From Luteolibacter sp. (lineage in GTDB: Bacteria > Verrucomicrobiota > Verrucomicrobiia > Verrucomicrobiales > Akkermansiaceae), in contig JBIIKO010000008.1 in NCBI GenBank assembly GCA_044233125.1, positions 20,873 through 84,872 on the forward strand: a stretch of 64,000 bases of DNA, in the 5' to 3' direction. Position 1 is the first letter of the stretch, and each line of letters starts with the position of its first letter. A program made the position numbers and the translations under genes. This document shows, piece after piece, positions 18,694-46,391 of this stretch. The notes beneath the pieces are model-generated. The model was not told where the DNA came from. It worked only from the letters and a program-made list of their open reading frames with translations, and ran no database searches.

Positions 18694-20559
18694 CTATTTC
18701 ACGGGCACAAGTTTCATTTCCCTCATGGTGAATCCCCGGCCCGTTTTGCAAGTGAGCATGAGGGTGTTTCTTCCTTCCTTGAGCTCCATTTCGACGGGCT
18801 TTGACAGCTCCCACATGCCGAGTGTGTAGGGGAGTTCCACATCGATTTGTGTTCTCCGGTTAAGCCGAATCAGTCCGATTTGATCCGGGGCGACGGTGCA
18901 GACGTCGAGGGTGATCATGTATTTGCCATCTTTTGGAGCCTCGATGTAGTAGGTCAAAAGCTCAGGTTCCGTTCCGAGCCGGGCGTAGTGCATCTGGGTT
19001 CCGGTTTTCTCGAAATTCGCCATGAAGAGAATGCGGCCGGTGCTGGAGCTTGGCTTTGCGCAGGCTGCGGCGGGAACGATGATTGAGCCATCTGCGGCAG
19101 CGACCATCTTCCGATGATCCTCAGGGATCACATAAGCCGCGCCATCGTGGGTCTCCTCGAGTCCCGCCTCGGACTCACCGAGGAGCGTCTTGGCTTCGTC
19201 TGCGGTCATGGCAGCGAGTTTTTTCTCCTCCTCGGATTTTGCCAAGGCGGCATCCGCCACCATCACCCGTTTTTTATAGAATGCCAGAGCATTCCAGAAG
19301 CCACCGCCCTGGCCGTAGGCGATGCGGTCCACATCTTCCTCGCCCAGAGCATCTGCGATCCACTGCGCACGAAGCACTTGCATGAAGGGCTTGGGAAAAA
19401 AGCGTGCTTGGGAGTCGAGATAGAAATCGAGCCCGCCGGGTGAGTTGGACCACCAGGCTCCCAAATTGACCTTCCAGCCTGTGGGCGTCCAGTGGGACAA
19501 AGCGCCGTGGGCGGTCTGGGGATGATTACGGGCTGGGATGCCGAAGGCGCGCAGGGTCAGACGGCCGAACCATGCGCGGGGGCCGCAGGAACCGCCGAGT
19601 GCGAGCGCCTGTTGAGACCGTGTGCCAAGCTCATCATCTGTGCGGATGCTGCTGTAGGGCATGTCGCTTTTCACGAGGCGAACATAGCGCCAATGGGTAT
19701 CGGCGGTGCGGATGTGATCCGGGCGGTAATTACGCATCGCTTTCCGGATCCAGGTAAGATCATTGAGCGCGCGCTCGCCAACCATGATGAAGCGGCAGAG
19801 CCATGGGGTCATGTCCTTGAACGACGGATCGAGTTCGCCATCGAGGTAGGCTTTCTCGTAGTGCTGGTAGCGTTCGACCGGATCGTTGCAGCTCAGAGCG
19901 ATGGCGGTACCCAAAGCGAGGTGTTGAAAAATAGTGCCGACCTCACGGGCGCGTTCGTTCTCTTTCAGGATCGCGGTATAGATCTGCATGGCCTCGCCGT
20001 AGTTGCCATCCTTTGCGCCCTCGGCCACGGTGATTTGCTTCATGAGCGCCTCATCGGCAAACAACTTATCGAGGAGCGCCTCCTGGGCTTTGCCTTGTTG
20101 GGCGAACGCGGCAAGTCCGTGTGGGGTGCCGTGAGTGAGGATGGCGATCCTGACCAACTTACCATCGAGCGCATCACTGCCGAGGAAAGTATCGTGATCC
20201 GCGAGAAGCGCTCTGGAGGACTCCATCATCTTGGATTCCGCCTGTGCCAGTGCTTCCTTATAGTTGGCGACATCTGCAGCCGTGGCGCCTTTCTCGGGAG
20301 CGACGAGTGCATCCAGAGTCGCCCGTGCGTCCAGAAAGGCCTGCTTTTTCTTTTCATCGATCGCAGGCAATGCCGCCACGACCTCCTTGTTGAGGGACGA
20401 GAGCAAAGTCTGATACTTTGTTAGAATTTTTTCGCCCTGCGCCGTGAGCGGGGCGGGAGCCTTCTTTTTTTGCGCTGCCGCAAACGGACAGAGCAAAATC
20501 AGACAGGCTACCATCATGCCCTGAGTGGTGATTTTCATCGTGTGCTTCATGGGTGTCAT
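18694..20559 (-). CDS. Exported transglutaminase-like (Cys-His) protein with C-terminal CBM-like beta-sandwich
   Basis: Signal peptide; GGSCGPRAWFGRLTLRAFGIPAR...AHG (C325/H351); C-terminal APKDGKYMITL...LPYTLGMW...LKEGRNTL. Paralog of 36696-39272. Confidence 0.65.
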   Translation of the reverse strand: MTPMKHTMKITTQGMMVACLILLCPFAAAQKKKAPAPLTAQGEKILTKYQTLLSSLNKEVVAALPAIDEKKKQAFLDARATLDALVAPEKGATAADVANYKEALAQAESKMMESSRALLADHDTFLGSDALDGKLVRIAILTHGTPHGLAAFAQQGKAQEALLDKLFADEALMKQITVAEGAKDGNYGEAMQIYTAILKENERAREVGTIFQHLALGTAIALSCNDPVERYQHYEKAYLDGELDPSFKDMTPWLCRFIMVGERALNDLTWIRKAMRNYRPDHIRTADTHWRYVRLVKSDMPYSSIRTDDELGTRSQQALALGGSCGPRAWFGRLTLRAFGIPARNHPQTAHGALSHWTPTGWKVNLGAWWSNSPGGLDFYLDSQARFFPKPFMQVLRAQWIADALGEEDVDRIAYGQGGGFWNALAFYKKRVMVADAALAKSEEEKKLAAMTADEAKTLLGESEAGLEETHDGAAYVIPEDHRKMVAAADGSIIVPAAACAKPSSSTGRILFMANFEKTGTQMHYARLGTEPELLTYYIEAPKDGKYMITLDVCTVAPDQIGLIRLNRRTQIDVELPYTLGMWELSKPVEMELKEGRNTLMLTCKTGRGFTMREMKLVPVK

Positions 20560-31391: not shown

Positions 31392-33526
31392 ATTGAACGC
31401 CTCCTGGACAGAAATCCTGCAAACAACCCTTCACCGACGAGGAACACCATTCCCGCCATCAAACAAAGTGGCCAAAGCGAGCGCACCTTGCGCCCCTCAT
31501 GGATCGCCTCGAGCAAGCGATCATCCGAACTGGCCACGCGCACATTGGTATCCGCTAAAATTTGTTCAGCGGCATCAGGCGCTAGCCCTTTGACCGCAGA
31601 TTCCTGCGTGTCCACATTGACAGCGATCGGCGTTCCGGGTGCCTGCGGATTGACGCGTGCTTGGTAAAAACCCGCCTCGCGCGCATTGCCGAGCATCGCA
31701 ACGTAACGGTTCCGATACTCGCTCACAGGCACGCTGATCAGTTCGCCCGATGGGCTTTCAAAGACCGCATCGTTGGTGCCGGGCTGATCGGTGTAAGTAA
31801 GAGTGAGCGAATCACCCACCGTCTGCGGTGTTTCGTATTCGCGCGCTGTTAGATAGGTGACCATTTGTTGCAGCAGCAGGGGGAAAATCGGCGTCACCGC
31901 CATATTGTTCCAGGATGCTCCCGCCGAAGTTGTGAACATGAACACCTGCCCACGTCCGAGCGAATGAGCCAACAGCACCGGCGTTGCGCTGCCGGCCAAG
32001 GTGAGAACCCGCGTACTGGTGGGCGCTGGCTTGACTTGCAGCACCTTGTGGAAACGCGCCTCGCTGAGCAGGTCTTCCGGCAGCGCGCCCAGCGACCGAC
32101 AGGCCGGATGATGCGTGAGCGATGGATCAAGAGGCCGTCCGACGCCCATGGAATCGGTGGTTTCCACCGTCTCTTCAATCACGGCAGGTAACAGCGATGT
32201 GTCATTGCCACGCTGTGAACGCTCATTCCAAACACTGGCCTTGATGCGATCCCCACCAAACCAGATCAGCCCGCGGCCCTTGCGCACATAGTTTTCAAAA
32301 ACTTGCGCCTGCTCGGCCGTGATGTCCGGAACGTCCGCGAGGACCACCAGATCGAACCCATCGAGATTCTGTGCGGGAAGCTCAGTCCAAGAGACCGACT
32401 GCACCGCCAAATCCTCATCGCCCGACATGCCACGGTGTGCCTGAAGGGCAGCCGCAATCAACCGGCTCGAAGCGGCCCCGGCCGCATCGCCATCCACGCA
32501 GAGCACGGAAACTTTTTCACGAATCACCGCTACCGCACGCCGGGTATTGTCCGCCTCCAGCGAGTCAGCCTCGATAGCGGCCGCGATGCGAACCGCACCC
32601 GGATCCCGGAATGGAATGAAAAGCGAAACGGACTCCGATGCGCCGGGAGCAATGCTGGAGATCACCTTACTGTCCACGTTGATGTCGTTCATCAGACCGG
32701 ACACGCGAACATTCTTTGCTTCCTGTAGGCCATAGTTTCGGACGGTGGCTTGGTAGCGTGCCGTGGTGTCCTTGCGCAGCACTCCAGAAATCAATTCCAG
32801 CGAAGTGACTCCGAGGTTTTCAGTGCCTCCGTCAATCGGAACCATCATGACCGAGGCCCCGGCAGCCAGATTGCGCAGGGAAGTCTTGAGGAAATGGGAT
32901 CGCGATTGCCATGCCTGCTCGCCCATATCGGAGATGATATAAATCTCACGCTGCGGCACCGCGAGTTCGGCGGTTAGATTTCCAAGAAACCGCGGCACGC
33001 TGTCCAAATCCAGCGATTCAGCCGTGGCCACCTGACCGTTCAGCAATTCAGAGAACGCAGTGGGATCGAACATCGTGTTGCGCGCCAGCACGCGGTGCTC
33101 CGATCCGAGCAAAACCAAACTCACCGGATCACCGGGCCGAATGGATTGCGCGATGACATCCGCCTTGGCGAGCGCCCGCTCGAAACGCGTTTCCTTGCCA
33201 TCGCTGTGCTGCATGCTGCAAGAGGCATCAATCGCGATGACCACTCCGGAGCGATTTTCACCCAACGCCGCCAATGCACTTCCATCCGACGAACCGAAGG
33301 GTTTGGCGAGTGCAAGCACAAGCAGCAGCAGGGCCAAACAACGCAGAAGCAAAAGCAGTAGATCGCGCAGGCGCAATTGACGCGAACGCACCCGGACACT
33401 GCGATTGAGGAAGCGCATTGCCGCCCAATCCGTGCGCCTCACCTGATCGCGGTTCAATAAATGCGCAAGGATCGGGAGGGACAAGCCGAGCACTCCGAGC
33501 AAAAGAAAGGGATTTAGAAAATTCAT
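31388..33526 (-). CDS. BatA-domain + vWA + CARDB-like membrane protein
   Basis: MNFLNP...LPILAHLLNR...WAAMRFL (BatA N-terminus), AIDASCSM MIDAS, IISDM, C-terminal TM. Confidence 0.85.
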   Translation of the reverse strand: MNFLNPFLLLGVLGLSLPILAHLLNRDQVRRTDWAAMRFLNRSVRVRSRQLRLRDLLLLLLRCLALLLLVLALAKPFGSSDGSALAALGENRSGVVIAIDASCSMQHSDGKETRFERALAKADVIAQSIRPGDPVSLVLLGSEHRVLARNTMFDPTAFSELLNGQVATAESLDLDSVPRFLGNLTAELAVPQREIYIISDMGEQAWQSRSHFLKTSLRNLAAGASVMMVPIDGGTENLGVTSLELISGVLRKDTTARYQATVRNYGLQEAKNVRVSGLMNDINVDSKVISSIAPGASESVSLFIPFRDPGAVRIAAAIEADSLEADNTRRAVAVIREKVSVLCVDGDAAGAASSRLIAAALQAHRGMSGDEDLAVQSVSWTELPAQNLDGFDLVVLADVPDITAEQAQVFENYVRKGRGLIWFGGDRIKASVWNERSQRGNDTSLLPAVIEETVETTDSMGVGRPLDPSLTHHPACRSLGALPEDLLSEARFHKVLQVKPAPTSTRVLTLAGSATPVLLAHSLGRGQVFMFTTSAGASWNNMAVTPIFPLLLQQMVTYLTAREYETPQTVGDSLTLTYTDQPGTNDAVFESPSGELISVPVSEYRNRYVAMLGNAREAGFYQARVNPQAPGTPIAVNVDTQESAVKGLAPDAAEQILADTNVRVASSDDRLLEAIHEGRKVRSLWPLCLMAGMVFLVGEGLFAGFLSRRRSI

Positions 33527-34452
33527 ACTCGTGCACCTCCTGATTGACCTGAAGACATCGACTCGCGTTCATGGAAAAACTGACTGAGAACCAAATCCAA
33601 GGGACGTGAGGTATCGATCAACGTATAATCGATTCCGGTACCGGCACAGGCCTTGCGGAAAGTATCAAGGTAGCTGTTGAGATTGGACAGATAGTCCTCA
33701 CGAATTCTCTCCGGCTGAGTGGTGAGTGGCAGCTCATTCTCAAGTCCGTCAAACTGCCAAGGCCCCTTGAACGGAAACTCGAGCTCATAGGGGTCAAGCG
33801 TGTGGCATACAACCACATTGTGCCCACTGAAACGCAGATGATCGAGGCCTAACATGATCTCATCGACATCCGCCAAAAAATCCGAGATCACCACCACAAC
33901 CGAACGCCGTTTCATCATCAACGCCGTGTCATGGAGTTGTTTGGCAATCGTGTTCTTGGGCTCGGAGGTGATCTGATTGAGCAAGCGGTCGATCTGGAGG
34001 ATGATACTCATCGACGAACGTGGAGGCAAATAGGCACGCACGGCGGAATCGAAAATCGAGAGCCCGACCGAATCGCGCTGTTTGAGCACAATATAAGCGA
34101 GCGAAGCCGCGAGGAACTTGGCGTATTCCAGCTTGCTGACCTTGCCAGAGCCGTAGGTCATGGACGCGCTGGCATCCATCAGCAGGTGACAATCATAATT
34201 CGTTTCCGCCTCATACAACTTCGTGAAGTAGCGCTCGGTACGACCATAAACCCGCCAGTCGATACTCCGAATCGGATCGCCCGAGACAAATTGCCGGTGA
34301 TGTGCGAACTCGGTGCTGAAGCCGCGCAGCGGACTGCGATGACTGCCCACACGCAGGCCCTCCACCACCTCGCGAGCAACGAGCTCGAGGTCATCGAGCT
34401 TCTGCAGGAGCTCGGGTTGCAGATAGGAATTTTGTTGTGATTGATCCATCAT
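33523..34452 (-). CDS. DUF58 protein (MoxR-associated vWA-like)
   Basis: GSHRSPLRGFSTEFAHHRQF..GD.IRSIDWRVYGRT and LMDASASM. Confidence 0.92.
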   Translation of the reverse strand: MMDQSQQNSYLQPELLQKLDDLELVAREVVEGLRVGSHRSPLRGFSTEFAHHRQFVSGDPIRSIDWRVYGRTERYFTKLYEAETNYDCHLLMDASASMTYGSGKVSKLEYAKFLAASLAYIVLKQRDSVGLSIFDSAVRAYLPPRSSMSIILQIDRLLNQITSEPKNTIAKQLHDTALMMKRRSVVVVISDFLADVDEIMLGLDHLRFSGHNVVVCHTLDPYELEFPFKGPWQFDGLENELPLTTQPERIREDYLSNLNSYLDTFRKACAGTGIDYTLIDTSRPLDLVLSQFFHERESMSSGQSGGARV

Positions 34453-34516
34453 GAGGAGGCGTTACATCCAATGTCGCGTAGGCTTTTGTTTTCGTATTAC
34501 TGACGTCCCAGCCTGC

Positions 34517-35533
34517 TTATTTCTGATAGATTTTTTCATCAGAAGGGATTTCCTTCAGGAGCCTTTCAATCAAGGTGTCCGAGGTCATACCATCGGAACG
34601 TGCCGCAAAGCTCGGAATAATCCTGTGCCGCAGGATCGGCAGCGCCAAAGCCTGGATATCCTCGATCGCCACGTGATGCCTGCCCCTCAGCGCGGCTCTC
34701 GCCTTGCCCGCCGTGATCAAATTGAGCGAAGCCCTGGGACCGGCGCCCCAGGCCATCAGTTTCTTGACGAAATCAGGTGAGTCCGCCTCGTTGGGACGCG
34801 TAGCCCGGACGAGTGAGGCAGCATATTCAAACACATGCTCGGCGACAGGAATGCGGCGTACGACATGTTGGAATTCCAGGATGGCGGCCTTGTCGATGAC
34901 TTGCTTCACATCCGCCTCGGTGTCACTTGTGATACTGCGCATGATGGACAGTTCCTCGTTACGGCTGGGATATTTCACCATGATATTGAAGAGGAAGCGG
35001 TCAAGCTGCGCCTCTGGCAGAGGATAGGTGCCTTCCTGCTCGATCGGGTTTTGCGTGGCCAAAACGAAGAACGGCGCGTCGAGCTTGTATTCCTCACCAC
35101 CGGAGGAAACCCGCTTCTCCTGCATCGCTTCAAGCAATGCGGCTTGGGTCTTTGGCGGAGTCCGGTTGATTTCGTCTGCCAGCAAGAGATTGGTGAAGAC
35201 CGGGCCCTTCTGGAACTTGAAGCTGCGACGATGCGTCTCCGGATCTTCCTGCAACAACTCGGTGCCGGTGATGTCCGAGGGCATCAGATCCGGTGTGAAC
35301 TGGATGCGCTTGAAGCCAAGTGACATGGTTTTCGCCAGCTCGCTGACCAGCAGCGTCTTAGCAAGACCGGGAACCCCGACGAGCAGGCAGTGGCCACGGG
35401 CAAAGATTGCGATCATCATCTCGTCGATGACTTCATCCATTCCGACGATCACCTTGCGAAGTTCTGTCACGATCGCATCCCTTGTCTTGCCGAGGTTTTC
35501 GACCGCGGCTGCGTTATCTGTCTGATTGCTCAT
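34517..35533 (-). CDS. moxR: MoxR-family AAA+ ATPase
   Basis: [67 protein letters not shown]. Confidence 0.96.
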
Positions 35534-35600
35534 GCTATTTTTATTATGTTAGATTTTATATGTTGTTTTCGGCACCGGGAGCCGAATGAGAATTTTTCAT

Positions 35601-36671
35601 TCACTTGTTTTTCAACAGCTCAACCATGGCCTGTCCCATGCCTTCGCCGACGTTCATGTAAGTCTCGGAGTTACTGCCGTAGTGGCCGTTGCCGCTACCA
35701 CCCTTCGAAAGCGGATGGGTGTAGACGGTTTTGACGTTGCCTTTGAAATCCGGATGCTTGCCGGAGTCGCCATCGACCGCGAGGTGAGCTTCGAGAATCT
35801 TGCCCCCATTGCCGCCGGATCCCTTCTTAGCTTCACCTAAAGTGCCGAGCACAAACTTTGCATGGGGAGCATTAAAGTCCTTGCGCAAAGCCTTGATGAA
35901 ACGGACAAGATTTTCCTCATAGTGAGCCGCGTGGGTGGCGCTGCCCGTGTCCTTCTCCCCCTGCCAGAAAAAGAATCCGGCCACCTCGTAACTCTTGGCT
36001 CCTGGGTAGTAGGTATTCAGATCACTCAGCACCGCCTTTGCATACTCGACATCGTCGTCGTATTGCTTGCCGGCATACCAACCCTGCGGCTTCTCGCCAT
36101 TGCCTTTGAGATTGTCCCTCGTTCCGCGGTAACCGGGCTGGCCGTCATAAGGTTCGCTACCTGGAGGCAACAAGTCCCAGCCAAGGCTGCGGTTACCGAT
36201 GCAGCTTTTGAGGATCATCACCGGTGCGTCGATGAAATCGCCCACGAAATGCGCGATGCCAAACTCCGGTCCGATGGACTTGCACTTGGCCACGTTCATC
36301 GGCTCGTTGTTGAAGACTTGCATGCCACCACCTTTTTTCCCGGACATGACGCGCACATAACGGACGTCGGCGCGGGAGGCCCACTTGCTTTCATCATCGA
36401 CCAGATAGGGATACAGTTTTTTGACCTTAACCGCGTGTTCCAGTCCACCTTCTCCGCCCGGAATGCGTCCCATTCCGACCATATTGGACTGCCCTAACAA
36501 AATGAAGACCTGAGCGGGCTTCGACATATCGGGCTCCTTGCCAACGGTTTTTCCCACTTCCTTTGGAGTCTCCGGTGCGCCGCCCTTGCGTTTGGCCGCA
36601 TCCGCGGTCGAGATTCCGATCATCAATACCGCTCCAAGGGTAGCCACCTTCACTAAATGATTTAACTTCAT
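35601..36671 (-). CDS. Exported SASA/sialate O-acetylesterase-family SGNH esterase
   Basis: FILLGQSNM, IGPEFG, FFWQGEKD and C-terminal GHY; signal peptide. Confidence 0.85.
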   Translation of the reverse strand: MKLNHLVKVATLGAVLMIGISTADAAKRKGGAPETPKEVGKTVGKEPDMSKPAQVFILLGQSNMVGMGRIPGGEGGLEHAVKVKKLYPYLVDDESKWASRADVRYVRVMSGKKGGGMQVFNNEPMNVAKCKSIGPEFGIAHFVGDFIDAPVMILKSCIGNRSLGWDLLPPGSEPYDGQPGYRGTRDNLKGNGEKPQGWYAGKQYDDDVEYAKAVLSDLNTYYPGAKSYEVAGFFFWQGEKDTGSATHAAHYEENLVRFIKALRKDFNAPHAKFVLGTLGEAKKGSGGNGGKILEAHLAVDGDSGKHPDFKGNVKTVYTHPLSKGGSGNGHYGSNSETYMNVGEGMGQAMVELLKNK

Positions 36672-36695
36672 GGATCGTTTCTTTTTTGGGTGGTC

Positions 36696-39272
36696 TTATT
36701 GAACGGGTTTCAAGATCAATGAATTCAGCGCAATTCCATATTGGGGCGCGTTCTTGCGGCAGAATTTCAGGACATTCTCGCCCTGTTTCAGTTCAAGGAC
36801 CACCGGCTCGGCATCCTGCCACTTGCCCAAGGTGAAGGGCAGTTTGATCTTAGTTTCGGCGGGATCCTCGTTCACGGCGACGTTCATGGATTGATGGTAG
36901 TTCATCGTGACCACAGTGGCCGTCAGCGCATACTTGCCTGCTTGCGGGATATTGACAGAAAACTCGATCTGAGAAGCCACGCTTCCGGGTGGGCCGGTCG
37001 GATCTTCCTTCGGGCTATTGGCGAAGTATTCCTTCTTATAGGTATCAGCGACGATTTCCCAGACGTTTCCGTAAATATCGTAAAGCCCCCATGGATTCGG
37101 TTTTTTCTGACCCACCGCTTGCGCCAGCTTTTTCTTAGGATCCGTGGTCGCCTCGCCATTCTCGATGAACCAGGCGTAGTCGCCTAATTTTGCCGGATCA
37201 GCCCCGAAGAACCATGGCGTGCTCGTACCGGCGCGCGCAGCGTATTCCCATTCCGCCTCGGTCGGAAGCCGGACTTCCCGACCGGTTTTGTCGTTGATGA
37301 ACAAACAAAAACGCTCGGCGCCGTCTGGGCCTATGCCGCCCACCGGATGATTGGGATTCTCCAAGGGCTTGTCACTTTTCGAAGCCAAAACAGCGGCATG
37401 CTGCGCGCGGGTTAGCTCGGTTTTGGCGAGGTAGTAGCCCTTGGTAAGCTTGACTTCATGCTTGGGCGCATTGGAGCAGCTATACTTGGACTCCGTCGTG
37501 GAATCGCCACCCATGATAAAGCTGCCGGGCTTGATATACACAAACTCCATCGACACATCGTTGCCAAGATCGAGCTTCACCACGGGTGTGGTTTCGCCGT
37601 CCTTGGGCGTCATGGCGGGACGGAATCCCCAGTCAGGATAACCCCCGCGGCCACCTTCCCTGAGGCGTGACTCAGATGAACAATTGCCCGTGCTACCTTT
37701 CATCGCTCCACCACGAAAGATGTAGCTGCCATTGCGCCCGAAATTTCCCAGATAGAGTTGTTTTCCGCCATAATAGCCATCCATCATATTAACACCCGAG
37801 GCCTTCTCGACTGAAGGTTTGTAGGACTCGACCGGAATATTGATTTCTCCGGGGGCCAATGGCCGGCTTTTTTTGTTCCTGCTGTTAGCTGACGCCAGCG
37901 CTTCCTTAACGCCATCGTCCGCAGCGTTGGCCTCCGCCAAATTCGCATCAAGGGGAGCCTGTTCCACAGCCTTCAAATCGGTGATGATCTTTTGTTGCGT
38001 GATCAGCGAGACTCCACCCCAGCTTTTCGTATCTCCTTTGCCACCGTATTGGCGTTTTTCACCGAGCACGTCGCCCGCCCATAGGGCGCGCTTGACTTGG
38101 ACATAAGCCTCCTTGTTTTTGCGAGCCTGAATGCTAGCCAGGAAGTTGCGGTCGCCTCCATAAATGGTATTGGTCCAACCACTGCCCCAGCGCGGACCGA
38201 GGTAGGGAATCCAGCCTTTGGGTGTCCAGCGCACCAAGGCCCCGTGAGCCCGACTTGGGCGGGCGGCCGATGGGATGCCAAAGCAGCGCAGAATGAAGCG
38301 GCCGAAGAAGGCGCGGCGCCCGCAAATGCCACCGTTCATCAGGATGTTCTGATAGTTCTGCAGCTCGGGCCGGTCTTGATTGGTTCTTCCTCCGCCATAG
38401 AGAACATTGGTTCTAACCATTCCCACGTAACGGCCGCCATCGCTCGTGGTGAGGATGTGATCGGGGCGGTAATCCCGAAGCATCTGACGTCCCCAAGCCC
38501 GGGCCCAGTCTGGCTCGTTGCCGTCCACGACAAACCGAAGCTCCCAGGCACTGAAGGTCGCGAAGGCGGGATCCAGCTCGCCGTCGAGGTAGGCTTTTTC
38601 GTAGTCCTGAAAGCGCTTCACCGGATCAATAATATTAGCAGAGGGAACCGGGATCGCTAGCTCAAGGGCAACCGCCAGTGCCAACTCATGCAATACGCCG
38701 TCCTTGGCCTTGGGACTTACTTTCAGGATGTCGGTGTAAATTTTCATCGCAGGTCCGTAATGCGACGGGGGCTTAGGTTTGTTCCGCTGTTGCTTTCCAA
38801 ACTTCGCTCCGTCCGCCATCAGCATCTGCTTCATCAATACAGGATTGGACAACAACTGGTTGATGAGCGCCTCGTTTTCCTTGCTCTGCTGTACGAATGC
38901 CGCCAGACCCTCCGGCGTTGCCTCAGTCAAGACCGCGACTTTCACCAGCTGATCATCCAATTTGTTGCTTTTCAGAAAAGCTTCGACCTGCGCTTGGTCA
39001 CTGATCTTGGGAAGTTTGGCCGTCAATTCCGCGCGAAGTTGATCCAGCATGCCCTTGTATTTCGCAACGATTTGAGGATCAACAACGGCCAACTTTGCCG
39101 CCTCTGCTGCCGCAGCGGCCTCAGCAGCCTTTGCCGCGGCAGCTTCCTCTGCCGCTTCTGCCGCCTGAGCTTCCTTGTCCTCGCCTGTTTGTGCGGACAC
39201 GGACTGTGGCAACCCGGCAAAACCGAGAGCCACCGCCATAAGCATAAAATTGCGTATGAAATTTCTTTTCAT
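36696..39272 (-). CDS. Exported transglutaminase-like + circularly permuted FGE-sulfatase + CBM-like protein
   Basis: GGICGRRAFFGRFILRCFGIP...AHG (C317/H343); FGE motifs RLPTEAEWEYAARAGT and NPWGLYDIYGNVWE; signal peptide. Confidence 0.8.
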   Translation of the reverse strand: MKRNFIRNFMLMAVALGFAGLPQSVSAQTGEDKEAQAAEAAEEAAAAKAAEAAAAAEAAKLAVVDPQIVAKYKGMLDQLRAELTAKLPKISDQAQVEAFLKSNKLDDQLVKVAVLTEATPEGLAAFVQQSKENEALINQLLSNPVLMKQMLMADGAKFGKQQRNKPKPPSHYGPAMKIYTDILKVSPKAKDGVLHELALAVALELAIPVPSANIIDPVKRFQDYEKAYLDGELDPAFATFSAWELRFVVDGNEPDWARAWGRQMLRDYRPDHILTTSDGGRYVGMVRTNVLYGGGRTNQDRPELQNYQNILMNGGICGRRAFFGRFILRCFGIPSAARPSRAHGALVRWTPKGWIPYLGPRWGSGWTNTIYGGDRNFLASIQARKNKEAYVQVKRALWAGDVLGEKRQYGGKGDTKSWGGVSLITQQKIITDLKAVEQAPLDANLAEANAADDGVKEALASANSRNKKSRPLAPGEINIPVESYKPSVEKASGVNMMDGYYGGKQLYLGNFGRNGSYIFRGGAMKGSTGNCSSESRLREGGRGGYPDWGFRPAMTPKDGETTPVVKLDLGNDVSMEFVYIKPGSFIMGGDSTTESKYSCSNAPKHEVKLTKGYYLAKTELTRAQHAAVLASKSDKPLENPNHPVGGIGPDGAERFCLFINDKTGREVRLPTEAEWEYAARAGTSTPWFFGADPAKLGDYAWFIENGEATTDPKKKLAQAVGQKKPNPWGLYDIYGNVWEIVADTYKKEYFANSPKEDPTGPPGSVASQIEFSVNIPQAGKYALTATVVTMNYHQSMNVAVNEDPAETKIKLPFTLGKWQDAEPVVLELKQGENVLKFCRKNAPQYGIALNSLILKPVQ

Positions 39273-39614
39273 GGTTGAATGAAATGGATGATTTTTTTCA
39301 ATTAGTTTCTGAATTTACGTGCGCTTCGCTCGCCGGAAGGAGTAAAAAAAAGACTAGCTCATAACAGACGGGAAATACGCTGCACGAAGGATGGAGAGCC
39401 CGCGCAACATTTATTACGTCGAGGTATCGGCTCGCAGTAGCGGTTGAGGCAAGAAACAATTTTTTATAATGCCGTCGTTTTTTAATACAGGTATGAGTTT
39501 ACTAACCACATGAAGATAAAGGCTCGGGATGAGTGGCGAACCCTTCGAAGCGGATCTGATCACGCGATTAACAAGAGTGATGCGTGGATTAAGGTTCACG
39601 TGGGGAAGCGAGGA

Positions 39615-42600
39615 CTATTTTTCAATTTTAACCTTCGCGGGCGGGGCGTCTTCATTACGGAATCCATACATGGGCAGGAGGCGATAGTAGACTTCCAGGC
39701 TAAGGGTCGCAAAAGCGGTGGAGATGACCCGTCCGCCAGGAACGATGTGCTGTCCGGTGGGATTCCAACTCCCGCTTTCTGCTCCGTCCTTCCTTTGGGT
39801 GAGTGGCAATACCTCTTTTAGCTTCTCGTTCCAGGCAAGCCACACCGGTCCCTGGTGCTGATAGAGAGCAAGGGTGGCGTAATACACATGGTAAAGGTCC
39901 GGAGCCTTGGGATTGATCGAGTGCATTTTGAGCAAGTCCGCGCTCTCCTGCATCATCGGCTCCGTCGGCGGAACAAGGTCCAACTGGCGGCAGAACATAC
40001 CGGTGGCCACCATCGCAGGATTGCTTCTACTAGGACCATCGTAGCCGTAGAGCCCACCATGTTTCCCTCCGCCGGCATAGGTGAACCACTTGCCCGCAAG
40101 TTCAAAAGCCGACTGCGGAACTTGGATGTCCGCCATTTTGGCGCTATGCAGCGCCATGTATTGCCAGCCGGTCACGGAGGTATCACTATCCTTGCTGGGC
40201 ACTCCGTTCTTGGCGGGTTCATAACGCCACCCGCCCTTGCTCGGGCTTTGTGAGGCGAGGATCAGGGCAATCGCCTTCTCGGCGGGTGCCTTGAGCTTGG
40301 GATCTTTGGTCGCGCCGTAGGCCTCGCACAACGCGATGGTCGCGATGCCATGGCAATACATTCTGCCTGTCGCCTTCGCGCCACCGGATAAATCCCCATC
40401 CTCCTTCTGTTGCGCCACCAACCAGTCGAGCGCCTTCCTGATGTTCGCTTGGTATTTTCCATCAGCGGTATGGCTCAAGCCCCAGCCATAGAAACATAGG
40501 AGAGCCGAGCCGACGCCAGCGGTGTCGTAATCGTCCTTAGCTCCGTGCTTACGGGTATCCCAACGCCCGTCGGCCTCTTGGTTGCGAGCCAACCAATCGA
40601 GGGCTGCGCCGATTCCCTTCTCACTTGCATCCGAGCCGCCGAGCGCTTCGATAGTCTCAAGAGAAGGTCTACCACGCTGTTTCTGGACGCTTTTGGTCAG
40701 GGCCTGCGGGTCGATTTCATGTTTCGGCATCTCCAACTTACCGGGCAGGAGCGGATCGGTGGTCGAGTCCGACCCACTGATATTGAGCAGCGTTGTTACC
40801 CGAGTGCCCACACCGTCCATCTTAGGAGGAGCACCCTGCGCCTCAAGCCCGGAGTGAGCGATGATTTGGGAACCACCGGTATCGGTTGTCGCGGCACTCG
40901 AGGAGCCAAGGGAAATCTCCTTATTTTGAGTCGATTTTTGCACTGCTTTCTCCGCGACATCGAGAGTCTTCTTGGCTTGTTCCGAGCCGACCTTGGGCAC
41001 CGATTTTGTCGGGCGGAAGAGATCCTTCGAGGAATCAGCCGGCTCGGAAGCCACGGCTGGCTCAGTAGAGGTCAACTCCGGAAGCGTGGGAAGCTCAGGC
41101 TCTAGCAGCTGACTTTCCGGCAAGCTGCTCGCCAGCTCACGTTGGTCGGAGGGCACGGGGACGGACTCCGAGGTGGGAGACTGATTCTCCTTCGACGCAC
41201 GCACATCCTGGATCATGGATTCCTTTGCCGTGCTGGTCACAATCGGTGGAGCATCGGAAGGCTGGACAGGTTTGAAATCCGGGATGACGAAGTCACTGAC
41301 AATTTTATCGGTAACGACAGCCACCTTGGTGTCACTCAATTTCGCCTCTTCCGGCGTGCTTTCCAAGGCCAGTTCTTCTTGGGCGAGTGCTTCGATACTG
41401 ATCGCGATATCCGCGGCTTGGGGTTCTCCGCCTGAGTCGAGATTCTGCTTGATCTGCCAAATCATCATCAGCAGCAGGATCAGCAAATGCACAGCGGCCG
41501 ATCCAGCGAGGCATTTGTGATAGAGGCTGGTGAGATCCTGCCAGCGTTCCAGCAGATAGATCAGCGCGATCAACGCAGCTAGTGCGAGTAACAAGCGCCA
41601 ACCGATCTGATTGAGCAACTCACCAAACTGCATCCAGCGCGAAAGATTCGTGTAACCAAAAACCTCGCGGGTGGTCGTCCGGTATAATCGATAACCCTCC
41701 GCCGGATTTTCCGAACCTTCCAGTGCGGCAGCGGCTTTCGGATCGGCGCTGAAAAGCAGATCAAAACCGTCCATCCGCACCGCCGGATCCGTGACATCAC
41801 CCTTGTCAATGTAGAGGTCCACACGCTCTGGTGGCAACGACTTACCGCCGACCATCCGGCTAAAATAAATGCCGAAGCCAGTGTTCTTGTCTCGGTCTCG
41901 ATCCGAAGCGAGGAACACGTGATCGCCGCGTCTTGACAACGCTGCCCGCAAATCACTTGCCGCAGTATTCAGCTCATTGACCGGCTCGGCTGCGGAAAAC
42001 GCGGGGATCTCTGGCAGTCCGATCTTTGCTTTCGGACTGGGCGCGGGGGGCGCGCTAGGTTGCGTGGCAATCCGGTTAGCAAGATAGATGTCATCGGCTC
42101 CTTGAGCGACCCGTTTGGATGAAAAATACAACTGCGAGTCATCCGCTGATAGAGTAGGACCAGCTTCATCCGCTGAGGAGTTTACCGAGGCACCCAGCGA
42201 CTCCACACCCGTCCAATCTTTGCCATCCCAGCGCGCAACATACAGATCGTAGCCACCGAGTCCGCCTTTGCGGTCGGAGGCAAAATACAGGTAATTTCCG
42301 TCGCTCGATAAGCCTGGACCGCGCTCGTTGGCGGCGGTATTGATCGATTGAATCGCCTCCGGGCGGCTCCACAACCTGCCATCCCAATTCGACTGATAGA
42401 GATCGGCATTAGCTTGGCTCTTATCCCAGCGGACCAAGATCATGCGGGTGCCATCGGCGGAAAACGCAGCCTCATACTGGCCGGCGGGTCCATTGACCGG
42501 ATCGACCCGCTTTGCATCTACGGTATCGCTTTTATCCTGAAAATAGTTGAGCTTCGGATCCTCCCACAAGACCATTCGCGCCTTGTCTTCTTGAACTTCG

Positions 42601-42809
42601 ACCCGCATTCCCTCGCCGTCACTGAAATAGGCCCAGACATCATCGCGCAGATTGCCCCAGAGCACCGATGCGATCACTGCGGCGACCACGAAAGCAAGCA
42701 CCGGCAGCGACCAGCGCTTCAGATAAACCAGCAGACGGCTCCGGCCTTCTGGTGGAATTTTCGTCGGATTTTTCCTATCTTGATGATCTTTCATGGGTCT
42801 GTGACTCAT
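39615..42809 (-). CDS. Inner-membrane protein: TM, PD40 propeller, TM, TM (SxxxH), low-complexity linker, alpha/alpha toroid
   Basis: PD40 repeats (PGLSSDGNYLYFASDR, PTLSADDSQLYFSSKR), hydrophobic helices at about aa 33-52, 404-421 and 433-452, QW repeats and DSDTSVTGW. Confidence 0.82.
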   Translation of the reverse strand: MSHRPMKDHQDRKNPTKIPPEGRSRLLVYLKRWSLPVLAFVVAAVIASVLWGNLRDDVWAYFSDGEGMRVEVQEDKARMVLWEDPKLNYFQDKSDTVDAKRVDPVNGPAGQYEAAFSADGTRMILVRWDKSQANADLYQSNWDGRLWSRPEAIQSINTAANERGPGLSSDGNYLYFASDRKGGLGGYDLYVARWDGKDWTGVESLGASVNSSADEAGPTLSADDSQLYFSSKRVAQGADDIYLANRIATQPSAPPAPSPKAKIGLPEIPAFSAAEPVNELNTAASDLRAALSRRGDHVFLASDRDRDKNTGFGIYFSRMVGGKSLPPERVDLYIDKGDVTDPAVRMDGFDLLFSADPKAAAALEGSENPAEGYRLYRTTTREVFGYTNLSRWMQFGELLNQIGWRLLLALAALIALIYLLERWQDLTSLYHKCLAGSAAVHLLILLLMMIWQIKQNLDSGGEPQAADIAISIEALAQEELALESTPEEAKLSDTKVAVVTDKIVSDFVIPDFKPVQPSDAPPIVTSTAKESMIQDVRASKENQSPTSESVPVPSDQRELASSLPESQLLEPELPTLPELTSTEPAVASEPADSSKDLFRPTKSVPKVGSEQAKKTLDVAEKAVQKSTQNKEISLGSSSAATTDTGGSQIIAHSGLEAQGAPPKMDGVGTRVTTLLNISGSDSTTDPLLPGKLEMPKHEIDPQALTKSVQKQRGRPSLETIEALGGSDASEKGIGAALDWLARNQEADGRWDTRKHGAKDDYDTAGVGSALLCFYGWGLSHTADGKYQANIRKALDWLVAQQKEDGDLSGGAKATGRMYCHGIATIALCEAYGATKDPKLKAPAEKAIALILASQSPSKGGWRYEPAKNGVPSKDSDTSVTGWQYMALHSAKMADIQVPQSAFELAGKWFTYAGGGKHGGLYGYDGPSRSNPAMVATGMFCRQLDLVPPTEPMMQESADLLKMHSINPKAPDLYHVYYATLALYQHQGPVWLAWNEKLKEVLPLTQRKDGAESGSWNPTGQHIVPGGRVISTAFATLSLEVYYRLLPMYGFRNEDAPPAKVKIEK

Positions 42810-45172
42810 ACCTCAACCCCTCCGGTGAGAGGTTCGCTCTTATCCGTGCCACCCAGTGACAACCTTTCAGCTCTTCGTGCGCGCAGGCAAAGCCAGACGA
42901 ACAACGCGAGAGCTGCCACCAATCCGAAGATCCAACCGATATTCGCCACCAGCCAGCTTGAGCCGGGCAGTTTCGAGTAGTCGTGCTTGCGCTCCACCCG
43001 GCGGCTCTTGGAACTGAATAACGAGTGCCGCTCACCCTCACGGTCCGAGTTTACGAACAGATGGAAGCCTGCCATGCGCACGGCGGGGTCAGTTTCATTT
43101 GCCGTGGTGTTGATTTCCCGGCCGAGGTTTTTCGGAGCCGTCGGCTCACCGCCGCTGACGCGGGTGCGGTAAATATCTGATCCACCGAAACCGCCCGGGC
43201 GCGCTGAGGTAAAATATAAAAAGTCGCCATGCTCGGTCACCACCGGACCGCGGTCGTCAGCCGGTGAACTCAAGCCAGCGAGATACTTTGCGTGGCGAAA
43301 ATGAGGCTCCGAAGGCAGCGAGGCAAGATTAGCGACGCCATGCGCGGGTCCTTGAGGATCCGGCTCGTAGCCGAGACCGTAGAGTGGTGTGTAGCGGTAG
43401 TGCGCTTCAAGGCAGAGTGTGGTCAGCGCCGTGACGATCAAGGGTCCCATCGAGCTGGCGTGTGGGCCGTTTGTCATCCATGATCCGTCTGCGGCTTGTG
43501 TCTCGATGAACGTCTTTTGCATGCTCTCCATCCACTTTCTCCAGAGCGGTCCCTGATGCTGATAAGCCGCGAGTGTTCCGTAATAGGCCGAGTAAATGTC
43601 GGCTACCTGAAAACCTGACTTGTCGAGGCTGAGTGCCGATTCGAAGGCTTTCGGCGCGTTGGCGGATGCTCCCGTCAACTGCGAGCAGAAGAAACCCACC
43701 GCAAGCAAGGCAGGGGTCTTGCTGCCGCCTTTGCCCGGCGGTTTGTCGTAACCATATGAGCCACCATGCTGGCCACCACTGATGTAGTCTAAAAATTTCA
43801 CCACCCCCTTGCGGGTTTTTTCGGGCACGGGCAGGCCCGACATCTCCGCACTTCCCAGTGCCATGACCATCCAGCCTGACACGGAAAGGTCCCCTGGATC
43901 GCCGGGTTTGTATCGCCATCCGCCCTCCGAATGTTGCGCTTCGACAATAAAATCGATCGCCGCCATGGCTCTCGGGCGCAACTCCTGATCCTTCGTCACC
44001 CCATAGGCTTCGATCAGCGCGAGCGCGCCAATCCCGTGGTCATACATTCCATGATTTTGCGGCTTCGCGCCACGCAAATCACCGGTGGCGACGTTTTGTT
44101 GGCTCAGCAACCACTTCAAGCCGCGCGCGACCGTATCCCGGTAACGGCATTCAATGTCGTGTCGTTCACCACGGCCATAATAGGCCAATAAAGCAAAAGC
44201 GGTCGCCGCAACTTCATGCCCCGCCTTTCCGCCATTGGCCCCGAGGTCCCAGTGGCCATCTTCCGATTGCTTTGAGGCAAGGTAGGCCAGCGCCTTGTCG
44301 ACAGCCGCCTCACTTGCCTGTGAGCCGCCCAGCTTGGCCATCACTTTAGGATCCGCCAGTGCCCCCTGGCGCAGCGAGTAGAGCATACTCAACTGCCTCT
44401 CGACGACCAAATCAAAAGGGGTGTCGCCGGCGATATCGGCACTGTAGAGATTAAAATCAGCTTCAAGCGCATGGATTTGCTCGCGAGTCAGGCCCTCGGT
44501 ACCGGGGGCGGATTGACCCGGCTTGGCAAGCGGCCGATTGGAGGCGAAGTATAGCACCAAACCGTCTGGCGAGAACGCGGGATCCACCTCATCAAACGCG
44601 GTGTTGACCCGGTCGGTCAGCGGCAGTGGCCATGCGAATTCGACCCCGTCCCAACGCGACACCCAAATGTCCTTGCCGCCTCGTCCGCCGGGACGATCGC
44701 TGCTGAAAAATAGAAAATGACCGTCACCACTGAGGGCGGGTGCCGTCTCATTGAATTTGCTGTTGAGTGCGCGCATCGGGCGCGGCTCCCCCCATCGCGT
44801 GCCGTCCCAGCGACGCAGGAACAGGTTTGCGTCTCCATCGGTCTCGCCGGTCACATAGACCATCCGAGTCCCGTCGGCAGAGAAAGTAGGCTGCCCGATG
44901 GTATCTTTCTGGCTAATCCCCTCTCCGGCAGGAGCGGATTTTTCCCACAAAACAAATCCGGGTTGCACATCGCGCGCCACTTGTTCGAATGCGACCTGAT
45001 CGGTATAACTGTACCAGCGCTCCGGACGCAGATACCATAAGGACCCCAGCACTGCTGCGACGAGCAGTAGCAGGCCGGACCAACCGTAGATCTTGAAACG
45101 GCGGCGGCGATCCAAGCCGAGCAGGGCTTTGCGCTCACGCGGTTTTGCTTCGTTCTTCACTTTGTCTTGCAA
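42806..45172 (-). CDS. Inner-membrane protein: TM, PD40 blades, alpha/alpha toroid, PD40 blades, TM
   Basis: PALSGDGHFLFFSSDR and PAFSPDGLVLYFASNR; toroid at about aa 280-600 (MYDHG, GGWRY, GDLSVSGW); later blades GDFLYFTSAR. 4 nt overlap with the downstream gene. Confidence 0.82.
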   Translation of the reverse strand: MQDKVKNEAKPRERKALLGLDRRRRFKIYGWSGLLLLVAAVLGSLWYLRPERWYSYTDQVAFEQVARDVQPGFVLWEKSAPAGEGISQKDTIGQPTFSADGTRMVYVTGETDGDANLFLRRWDGTRWGEPRPMRALNSKFNETAPALSGDGHFLFFSSDRPGGRGGKDIWVSRWDGVEFAWPLPLTDRVNTAFDEVDPAFSPDGLVLYFASNRPLAKPGQSAPGTEGLTREQIHALEADFNLYSADIAGDTPFDLVVERQLSMLYSLRQGALADPKVMAKLGGSQASEAAVDKALAYLASKQSEDGHWDLGANGGKAGHEVAATAFALLAYYGRGERHDIECRYRDTVARGLKWLLSQQNVATGDLRGAKPQNHGMYDHGIGALALIEAYGVTKDQELRPRAMAAIDFIVEAQHSEGGWRYKPGDPGDLSVSGWMVMALGSAEMSGLPVPEKTRKGVVKFLDYISGGQHGGSYGYDKPPGKGGSKTPALLAVGFFCSQLTGASANAPKAFESALSLDKSGFQVADIYSAYYGTLAAYQHQGPLWRKWMESMQKTFIETQAADGSWMTNGPHASSMGPLIVTALTTLCLEAHYRYTPLYGLGYEPDPQGPAHGVANLASLPSEPHFRHAKYLAGLSSPADDRGPVVTEHGDFLYFTSARPGGFGGSDIYRTRVSGGEPTAPKNLGREINTTANETDPAVRMAGFHLFVNSDREGERHSLFSSKSRRVERKHDYSKLPGSSWLVANIGWIFGLVAALALFVWLCLRARRAERLSLGGTDKSEPLTGGVEV

Positions 45173-45204
45173 GGGTATGGCTTGAGTTCAATGAGGAATT
45201 TGCC

Positions 45205-45624
45205 TCAGGATTCGGTTTTAAGGGCGATATTGGCTTTCGGGACACCTACGTGACGGCATATCGACATGATGTTTGCCAGATAGAGATGCTTGGCATCCTG
45301 ATCACAACGGATCAGCACTTTGATATCGGGTTTTTTGGCCACCTCCTCGGTCATCCATTCCGAGATCTTTTCCTCCGTCACCTGTTTGCCTAATACGACA
45401 TAAGATCCATCCTTGCGGATGTTGATGTTGATCAATTTACTGGCGGATTGTGTCAGTGATTGGTTTTTTGAGTCCACCGGCAGATTCACGCTGTGATCGA
45501 TCTCCTCTTCCTTGAAGGTGGTGGTGACGAGGAAGAAAATGAGCAGCAGGAAGATCAAATCCATCATGCTGGTCATGCTGATCAGCTCCTCGCTATTCTG
45601 GCGGGAATTGCGACGGCAGTTCAT
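45205..45624 (-). CDS. exbD: ExbD/TolR-family protein
   Basis: TM SMMDLIFLLLIFFLV with the conserved Asp; periplasmic VLIRCDQDA. Confidence 0.92.
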   Translation of the reverse strand: MNCRRNSRQNSEELISMTSMMDLIFLLLIFFLVTTTFKEEEIDHSVNLPVDSKNQSLTQSASKLININIRKDGSYVVLGKQVTEEKISEWMTEEVAKKPDIKVLIRCDQDAKHLYLANIMSICRHVGVPKANIALKTES

Positions 45625-46391
45625 GGCTTGGAGGAAGGAGATGTTAGCCGAGCGTGTTTGACGATGAACTCGGTGCCGACCTCGTCGATGTGATCGATCG
45701 CTCTGTCAGCCCGGGTCGAGAGCCACTGGAAAAGCAGCAATGCGGGAATGGCAATGGTCAGTCCGGCGGCGGTACTAACGAGCGCCTCGTAGATACCCGT
45801 CGCCAAATCAGAGGTCTTGGCCGCACCGCCGCTTTCGGCAGTAGCTTGGAACGAATCGATCATACCGTAAATGGTCCCGAGCAAACCCAGTAGTGGGCTG
45901 ACACTGGCGATGATCGAAAGTGGACGCAGGCTGCGGGTAATTTTCTCAGCCTCACGTGCTCCTGCATCCTCAATCGCCTTGCTAACCGCCTGGTATCCCT
46001 CATTGCGCCATTGAATACCTGCCTTCAACACGTGGCCGGCAGCCCCGCCCGATTGATCACAAAATTCCTCGGCGGCCTGGCCTGTGGGATCACGATCCCA
46101 AGCCTCACCAAGACCCTGCAGGAAATTGTCCGGCAACAACTTCTCTTTGCCCAAGGAAATGAAACGTTCAATGCCCAGCGCCAGCGCGATGATCGAGCCG
46201 ATCGCAAGAGGAATCATCACCGGTCCGCCTTTTTTGATGAGGCTGAACATGGTTTCCTTGGCTACTCCGGCGGCTTCTCCCGCCTCAGCCGCATGGGCGA
46301 TGGCGGTGAGCGCCATCAGTAGCGAGGCACTGAGGAAAAGGGTCATGCGCCGCCGCCGGCCGTCTTTCATCGTCGTATTTCGAATGTCCAT
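45621..46391 (-). CDS. exbB: MotA/TolQ/ExbB proton channel protein
   Basis: SPLLGLLGTIYGMIDSF and GIYEALVSTAAGLTIAIPA; coupled to exbD. Confidence 0.93.
   Translation of the reverse strand: MDIRNTTMKDGRRRRMTLFLSASLLMALTAIAHAAEAGEAAGVAKETMFSLIKKGGPVMIPLAIGSIIALALGIERFISLGKEKLLPDNFLQGLGEAWDRDPTGQAAEEFCDQSGGAAGHVLKAGIQWRNEGYQAVSKAIEDAGAREAEKITRSLRPLSIIASVSPLLGLLGTIYGMIDSFQATAESGGAAKTSDLATGIYEALVSTAAGLTIAIPALLLFQWLSTRADRAIDHIDEVGTEFIVKHARLTSPSSKP

Follow-up and report, generated by a model that had tools for sequence, protein, structure and literature searches.

Evidence for a nested, circularly permuted FGE-sulfatase domain in a secreted protein of Luteolibacter sp.

Domain organization of the window protein

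The DNA analyzed here, hereafter the window, is a 64,000-nt stretch of the Luteolibacter sp. contig JBIIKO010000008.1 (positions 20,873 to 84,872). Its minus strand carries a gene, encoding what is hereafter the window protein, in which a domain of the FGE-sulfatase family (PF03781; FGE, formylglycine-generating enzyme) interrupts a beta-sandwich resembling the carbohydrate-binding modules (CBM) of families 6 and 35. Within this domain the RGG...GFR segment, which closes the chain of canonical FGE domains, lies ahead of the core instead of behind it (Table 1). As an explanation of the whole, we consider it very probable that this is a secreted protein carrying a nested, circularly permuted FGE domain, likely an excerpt of a tandem array, which would act as a lectin-like module.

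Table 1. Features of the window protein, its neighbor and its paralog, with positions in the 64,000-nt window.
Feature	Coordinates	Strand	Residues (aa)	Remarks
Whole open reading frame (ORF)	36696..39272	-	858 + stop	single intact ORF; secreted multidomain protein
Sec-type signal peptide	39192..39272	-	1-27	MKRNFIRNFMLMAVALGFAGLPQSVSA, then Q; read off the sequence, cleavage site inferred
N-terminal domain	37938..39095	-	~60-445	mostly helical; in 8/8 paralogs; invariant C317...H343 motif
CBM6/35-like beta-sandwich, first strands	37728..37850	-	~475-515	ahead of the insertion point; paralogs align up to aa 518
Relocated FGE C-terminal segment	37620..37727	-	516-551	SYIFRGG...R536...Y545.DWGFR; three predicted strands; homology to canonical FGE C-terminus
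Linker, old C-terminus (GFR) to old N-terminus (MEFV)	37551..37619	-	552-574	23 aa; one predicted strand; matches inter-domain linker of tandem FGE arrays
FGE-sulfatase core	36984..37550	-	575-763	ends in DPTGPPG; Pfam profile positions 4-205; PDB and Foldseek matches
CBM6/35-like beta-sandwich, remainder	36699..36983	-	764-858	30% identity to paralog C-terminus; CBM35/CBM6 structure matches
SASA-family (PF03629) carbohydrate acetylesterase	35601..36671	-		directly downstream of the window gene; recurrent neighbor of family members
Insert-less paralog	18694..20559	-	621	N-terminal domain and sandwich in common with the window protein; no FGE block

A first-pass annotation, made from the letters of the window alone, had already located the pieces of the insert, and its residues and coordinates proved exact: YIFRGGAMKGSTGNCSSESRLREGGRGGYPDWGFR (YIFRGG...WGFR) occupies aa 517-551 (nt 37620-37724), MEFVYIKPGSFIMG has its first residue at aa 575, and the last residue of EDPTGPPGS is aa 764 (nt 36981). 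The architecture of the window protein recurs in more than 100 full-length homologs of 49-97% identity. AlphaFold2 (AF2) modeling of the full 858-aa protein with the family alignment gave a predicted local distance difference test score (pLDDT) of 83.9 and a predicted template modeling score (pTM) of 0.80. An Ala/Glu-rich low-complexity stretch directly follows the signal peptide, and pLDDT is below 50 over aa 1-39; in the early part of the sandwich, strands were predicted at aa 477-479, 494-498 and 504-508.

Order of the FGE pieces

The PF03781 profile (255 positions) matches aa 576-757 with its positions 4-205 at 98.5 bits, the gathering cut-off being 23.3, which places the insert core in the FGE-sulfatase family. 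Coverage does not continue colinearly through RGG...GFR. In the Pfam scan of the 858-aa protein, the last 50 profile positions had no colinear match and nothing downstream of the core supplies them: the chain after DPTGPPG goes on as a strand that can be aligned to the C-terminal sandwich of the paralog, and positions ~206-252 are matched by the upstream aa 516-551. A single colinear match over the whole domain, named in the first-pass annotation as the result that would speak against its permuted order, was thus not seen, PF03781 stopping at position 205. The two PF03781 matches in swapped order that the same annotation had foreseen were likewise absent on the native sequence and, because this literal test failed, re-joining of the pieces with controls and searches with family profiles were used instead.

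For the re-joining, aa 570-763 were followed in silico by aa 516-556, and eight control constructs were made (the segment in six shuffled versions and in reverse, and the 41 residues that natively follow the core). The re-joined sequence matched PF03781 positions 4-252 at 113.2 bits, while the controls scored 105.6-106.4 bits and ended at profile positions 203-210; the core alone gave 106.3 bits. The effect was larger against a single structure: in phmmer searches, the score of PDB entry 2y3c, the Treponema denticola variable protein TvpA, rose from 41.3 bits with the native sequence to 60.4 bits after re-joining (+19 bits), and the two chains then aligned through to their ends, YIFRGGAMKGSTGNCSSESRLREGGRGGYPDWGFRPAMTP being set against RVLRGGSWAGSADYCAVGERVNISPGVRCSDLGFRLACRP (RVLRGGSW...GFR).

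Profiles built from the family gave the same picture. The A1 profile, computed from 80 family members, matched 2y3c in swapped order, its positions 582-639, 641-731 and 494-532 aligning to chain residues 53-116, 159-249 and 255-293, respectively, with a conditional E value of 6.6e-6. A hidden Markov model (HMM) of the 47-residue upstream segment only (A3), searched against 177,635 distinct PDB sequences, gave one significant match, which fell on residues 255-292 of the 294 of 2y3c (E 0.011). From the re-joining, A1 and A3 results, the upstream segment is a homolog of the canonical C-terminal piece and the order is rotated: the RGG...GFR segment now stands N-terminal to a core that has no copy of its own, the homologous segments occurring once each in rotated sequence order, as in a circular permutant. 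The swapped order exceeds chance, and the permutation put forward in the first-pass annotation therefore holds on these three lines of evidence, if not on the Pfam test it had proposed.

Insertion into the CBM6/35-like sandwich

The insert-less paralog encoded at 18694-20559 can be aligned with the window protein as far as aa 518 and again from aa 763 onward, in line with the earlier remark that it lacks the block. The 3.0-Mb genome encodes eight paralogs (G000 contigs C5, C7, C8, C14 and C15), three of which carry the 245-aa block and five of which do not. In all three bearers the block lies at the identical site of a MAFFT alignment, a hairpin whose sequence in the paralog at 18694-20559 is GTQMHYARLGTEPELLTYYIEAP. 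The insert-less form is widespread, with at least 120 homologs listed that share the N-terminal domain and the C-terminal sandwich. The host domain is therefore continuous in relatives, and the insert (aa ~519-762) sits at one fixed site, as is expected of a nested domain.

The nature of the host is indicated by both structure and sequence. In Foldseek searches, the C-terminal part of the AF2 model matched CBM35/CBM6 structures (2w47, E 5.6e-5; 2w1w, 7.4e-5; 2cdo, 1.8e-4; also 2cdp and 2vzp, in a range to 1e-3), the matches spanning 92-115 of ~130 residues and fitting the part that follows the insert. At the sequence level, the A1 profile matched 2w47, 2w1w and 2vzp at E values of 0.013-0.018, and two insert-less homologs (P0148 and P0203) carry PF03422 (CBM_6); the only Pfam match of the window protein's own sandwich was PF14683, at 11.9 bits and below the cut-off.

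A tree of 32 proteins was computed with the insert columns removed and rooted at the midpoint. A single branch sets the insert-bearing proteins apart from the others, with a support of 97 in the SH-like approximate likelihood ratio test (SH-aLRT), so that the distribution of the insert takes one change, and under this rooting the bearers are nested among insert-less lineages. CBM6/35 modules being ordinarily continuous, a single gain of the insert is the parsimonious reading. The block is inserted relative to the paralogs and has a single origin on the tree; insertion into a loop of the sandwich, as first proposed from the window alone, is in this way borne out by the insert-less paralogs and homologs, the CBM matches and the single branch.

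Relation to tandem FGE arrays

A possible source of the shifted register was found in proteins with several FGE domains in a row. P0010, a kinase of 1377 aa, has four tandem canonical FGE domains, and the insert aligns to it colinearly with 35-37% identity (E 9e-44), not over single domains but across three successive junctions: the path runs from HIIRGGSW...GFRVVCVP of domain n through the linker into ITLEMVGLPAGQFLMG... of domain n+1 and stops just short of the following RGG. Arrays of this kind are very abundant. A search of the representative library with the insert gave 135,386 FGE-domain matches, many of them with 3-11 stretches, and in many of these proteins the best stretch spans a junction. 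The best 150 of the 135,386 matches are mostly multi-domain tandem FGE proteins with summed scores, and none of these 150 was identified as having the permuted order in another architecture; the sole one-stretch match among them, P0360 (347 aa), belongs to the window protein's family and is truncated at its N-terminus.

The colinear alignment across tandem junctions suggests that the insert was cut out of register from such an array. Most likely, judging from these alignments, it represents a window of one domain length in a shifted register that arose by duplication and truncation, which is the classical route to circular permutation.

Conservation and predicted fold of the insert

The same alignments, in which the insert is colinear with the end of domain n and the start of domain n+1, and the single stretch reported by PF03781, would also agree with a vestigial origin, in which RGG...GFR is an unpacked leftover of a lost preceding FGE domain and the core is truncated and perhaps partly unfolded. 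We regard such a remnant as very improbable in view of the conservation of the segment. In the 80 homologs, whose identity goes down to 49%, R520, G521, R536, Y545, W548, G549, R551 and A553 are invariant and G522, S533, G541 and G543 nearly so; seven of the invariant residues belong to the relocated piece, in the R-G-G and W-G-x-R motifs among others. In addition, C-terminal strands are missing from the core itself, which passes directly into the sandwich.

Structure prediction also speaks against a remnant. AF2 modeled the isolated insert (aa 509-766, alignment A2) as one compact domain with a pLDDT of 90.2 and a pTM of 0.90, and the relocated piece, which covers fragment residues 8-43, reached a pLDDT of 93, 92, 81 and 96 in the successive 10-residue blocks 11-50, with predicted strands at aa 516-521, 532-538 and 548-550. 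In the full-protein model, aa 511-560 had a pLDDT of 76-89. Each canonical secondary-structure element appears once in the models, in rotated order. Foldseek searches with the insert model returned only FGE-fold structures, including PvdO (5hha), TvpA (2y3c) and the FGEs 6muj, 2q17 and 1y1h, and the best 26 matches were all of this fold with probability 1.0; the template modeling (TM) scores of 0.5-0.6 are those expected when a sequential aligner meets a permutant. Foldseek being such an aligner, the searches with the insert model and with the full-protein model confirm the folds and are not a test of the permutation. The insert is thus predicted to adopt the FGE-type, C-type-lectin-like fold, in which the relocated segment would pack on the core as in the canonical domain. 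The AlphaFold and Foldseek runs that the first-pass annotation had called for gave a compact FGE-fold domain with a confidently modeled relocated segment.

The relocated piece might instead complete the core of a neighboring subunit, which would make the protein an obligate domain-swapped oligomer and not an intramolecular permutant. This arrangement agrees with all of the sequence data, although nothing specific points to it, and a linker of 23 aa could in principle reach across subunits. However, the insert is already compact in a confident prediction of the monomer, and the linker (aa 552-574) has a conserved length and DLG motif as well as a predicted strand, which suggest a fixed intramolecular connection. 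Domain swapping therefore appears very unlikely, and we retain an intramolecular permutant as the probable state of the insert.

Function of the insert

The family name raises the question of whether the insert is an enzyme of the FGE type that would mature sulfatases encoded nearby. Database names given to these proteins, such as 'SUMF1/EgtB/PvdO family nonheme iron enzyme' or 'formylglycine-generating enzyme required for sulfatase activity', speak in its favor, as do the sulfatase genes that adjoin some family members. The two active-site Cys of FGE proper (SUMF1-type, Cu-dependent) are, however, not both present. The position aligned to human FGE C336 is G, S, N, D, V or T in 80/80 homologs and never Cys, while the one aligned to C341 is Cys in 63/80; the correspondence to C336/C341 of the human sequence was made by motif. 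Because the copper-binding Cys pair is absent, the insert cannot be a formylglycine-generating enzyme. Scores against the NCBIfam equivalogs were far below the cut-offs (PvdO, 65.4 against 500; GldK, 55.3 against 350; EgtB, 26.8 against 360), and membership in none of the PvdO, GldK, GldJ, EgtB, OvoA and SenA equivalogs was found, no cut-off being approached. Moreover, the protein has a Sec-type signal peptide for its export, and a CBM-like module encloses the domain. Taken together, these results make a catalytic FGE-family role highly implausible.

By sequence and by fold, the insert is closest to family members that are non-catalytic or serve in binding, namely TvpA, PvdO, PorK/GldK and kinase-linked domains. 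PF03781 has been treated elsewhere as a lectin-like sensor domain with the C-type-lectin fold (PMC8195603). Together with the absence of the Cys pair, this suggests by analogy that the insert may be a lectin-like ligand-binding module standing beside the CBM-like sandwich.

Interpretation and comparison with known systems

The following reading would account for these data. The family, which occurs in Planctomycetes and Verrucomicrobia, combines an uncharacterised N-terminal domain with a CBM6/35-like beta-sandwich on its C-terminal side. In one of its clades, an FGE-sulfatase domain of ~245 residues, of the C-type-lectin-like type, has entered the hairpin loop between the early and the remaining strands of the sandwich. 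The inserted domain opens with the three-stranded RGG...R...WGFR piece, canonically the last in the fold, from which the 23-residue linker leads into the canonical N-terminus MEFVYIKPGSF.MG, and it stops at DPxGP, the exact point at which the RGG piece would follow in a canonical chain. Such a start and stop necessarily place the new termini side by side, as befits a domain lodged in a loop. The insert and the CBM-like sandwich would then hold the N-terminal domain on a glycan, probably acetylated and/or sulfated as judged from the gene neighborhoods described below. What the data show directly is the rotated sequence order, the homology of the relocated piece, the placement of the block relative to the paralogs, its single origin on the tree and the lack of the Cys pair; the tandem-array origin, the binding role and the glycan context are deductions.

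Several points weigh against this interpretation. The Pfam scan of the native sequence gave no second, swapped PF03781 match, no Pfam match at E<=10 was obtained with the 70-aa upstream piece by itself, and the gain from re-joining in the Pfam score is modest (~7 bits). The packing of the relocated segment is a prediction, the evidence being AF2 confidence and pTM. A canonical FGE domain, with its C-type-lectin-like fold, probably has neighboring termini already, and a permutation is not obviously needed for its insertion. Finally, the proposed function would follow solely from missing catalytic residues and gene neighborhoods, and these neighborhoods differ between loci of family members.

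Among known systems, TvpA is the nearest. It was the best PDB match after re-joining, is non-catalytic, uses an FGE-type C-type-lectin fold for ligand binding and, like the window insert, lacks the FGE Cys pair. It differs in that its order is canonical, that it is not nested and that it is the target of a diversity-generating retroelement; nothing at the window locus suggests such an element, although no search aimed at one was made. The FGEs themselves (PF03781; human SUMF1, 1y1e; Streptomyces, 2q17/6muj; Thermomonospora, 6s07) have in common with the insert the fold and the core motifs LPTEAEWEYAAR, GNVWE, DPxGP and RGG...GFR, whereas the insert has profile positions 206-255 before 4-205, lacks the Cu-binding Cys pair and is placed inside a beta-sandwich. 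PvdO (5hha), PorK/GldK/GldJ and the kinase-linked FGE domains (ToxD, 7spq; 5nxl) resemble the insert in having the FGE fold without FGE chemistry and rank at the top of the Foldseek and phmmer matches, those of phmmer in the PDB including FGE, PvdO and ToxD. All of these domains, unlike the insert, are colinear with the Pfam model, and none is nested in a CBM.

The tandem multi-FGE proteins (P0010, P0358 and P0382) are the likely source, the insert corresponding to the end of domain n, the linker and the core of domain n+1. Every domain of these proteins is complete and canonical, whereas the insert keeps one domain-length window and must close in permuted form. The CBM6/CBM35 modules (2w47, 2w1w, 2cdo and 2vzp) match the sandwich of the window protein, which differs in being interrupted by a nested domain of 245 residues.

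Natural circular permutation and domain nesting are in themselves well known, the classical permutants being concanavalin A/favin, the swaposins, the permuted transglutaminase-like peptidases and the permuted DNA methyltransferases. These share with the insert the phenomenon and the likely route by duplication and truncation, but not the fold. The searchable full-text literature yielded no description of an FGE-sulfatase domain that is circularly permuted or nested. It is conceivable, but we hold it doubtful, that the insert is the first described natural permutant of the FGE-sulfatase/C-type-lectin type and that it forms, with the sandwich, a composite recognition unit for acetylated/sulfated glycans serving a new Cys-His family of glycan- or peptide-active enzymes in Planctomycetes and Verrucomicrobia.

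PF03781 is among the most abundant domains of Planctomycetes and Verrucomicrobia, where its carriers receive, as a matter of routine, the name 'formylglycine-generating enzyme' or 'nonheme iron enzyme'. For the family of the window protein these functional names appear misleading and should be flagged as such, and the permutation explains why the domain annotation of hundreds of proteins breaks off at position 205 of the profile. The family also indicates that the FGE fold tolerates a rotated chain order, that a permutant can be fixed while nested in a CBM-type sandwich and that an out-of-register excerpt from a tandem array is a likely route to the rotation. It thereby points to a viable site for new termini in the FGE/C-type-lectin scaffold, a scaffold also used by targets of diversity-generating retroelements, and offers a natural example for protein evolution and engineering. 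Should acetylated or sulfated glycans be what the family acts on, it would represent an uncharacterised component of polysaccharide turnover in marine and freshwater environments.

N-terminal domain

Profile searches found no match for the N-terminal domain (~400 residues) in Pfam, NCBIfam or the PDB sequences. Its invariant residues are G314, G315, C317, G318, R320, A321, F322, R329, G332, P334 and H343, in a motif, QNILMNGGICGRRAFFGRFILRCFGIPSA (GGxCGxRAF...R..G.P...H), that weakly resembles the catalytic Cys helix of the transglutaminase core. Its pLDDT in the AF2 model is mostly above 85 and falls below 50 at aa 288-299 and aa 308-318; parts of the latter stretch are invariant, whereas the former is not.

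A transglutaminase-like core was considered as a candidate and not adopted. PF01841 gave 11.9 bits (E 0.5) in one paralog only, and hhalign aligned 29 columns to the transglutaminase core with a P value of 0.0034 and a probability of 9.5%; Cys317 and His343 are invariant, and no third residue of a triad was identified.

Distribution and gene neighborhoods

Named homologs come from Planctomycetes (Anatilimnocola, Thermoguttaceae) and Verrucomicrobia (Luteolibacter). When six candidates were scored per genome, a family member at E<=1e-60 was present in 3/150 sampled genomes of the window's phylum, and in these 150 genomes, with the 854-aa ORF of genome G026 left out, no match reached into the insert region. 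Family members were found in 0/15 sampled genomes of the organism's own taxonomic family. Three of 150 genomes against eight paralogs in one genome of 3.0 Mb indicates a patchy distribution with local expansion.

A SASA gene adjoins family members not only in the window but also at L006, L001 (two copies) and L005 (three copies and a GH95 gene), the loci L001, L005 and L006 being, as a set, the contig of a close ortholog, a planctomycete genome and a second verrucomicrobial metagenome-assembled genome (MAG). Other loci have sulfatases, a weak, faint match to Glyco_hydro_99 (PF16317) and a 3-keto-disaccharide hydrolase. The SASA, sulfatase and GH95 neighbors suggest that the family may take part in the processing or degradation of acetylated or sulfated glycans.

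Three further observations concern gene order. In the window, positions 33523-46391 of the minus strand have the order ExbB, ExbD, two PD40/TonB-like proteins, the window gene, SASA, MoxR, DUF58 and a BatA-like gene, and this order from ExbB to the BatA-like gene is kept in L006, the contig of a 77%-identical ortholog (P0004); other members lie in unrelated contexts. At positions 6001-11093 of L004, a metagenomic contig, two insert-bearing members (815 and 838 aa) stand in tandem beside a sulfatase gene. Lastly, a putative LacI-type regulator (periplasmic-binding fold), judged by eye, is encoded on the plus strand of the window at 17551-18612, head-to-tail beside the insert-less paralog at 18694-20559, a position that would fit sugar-responsive control.

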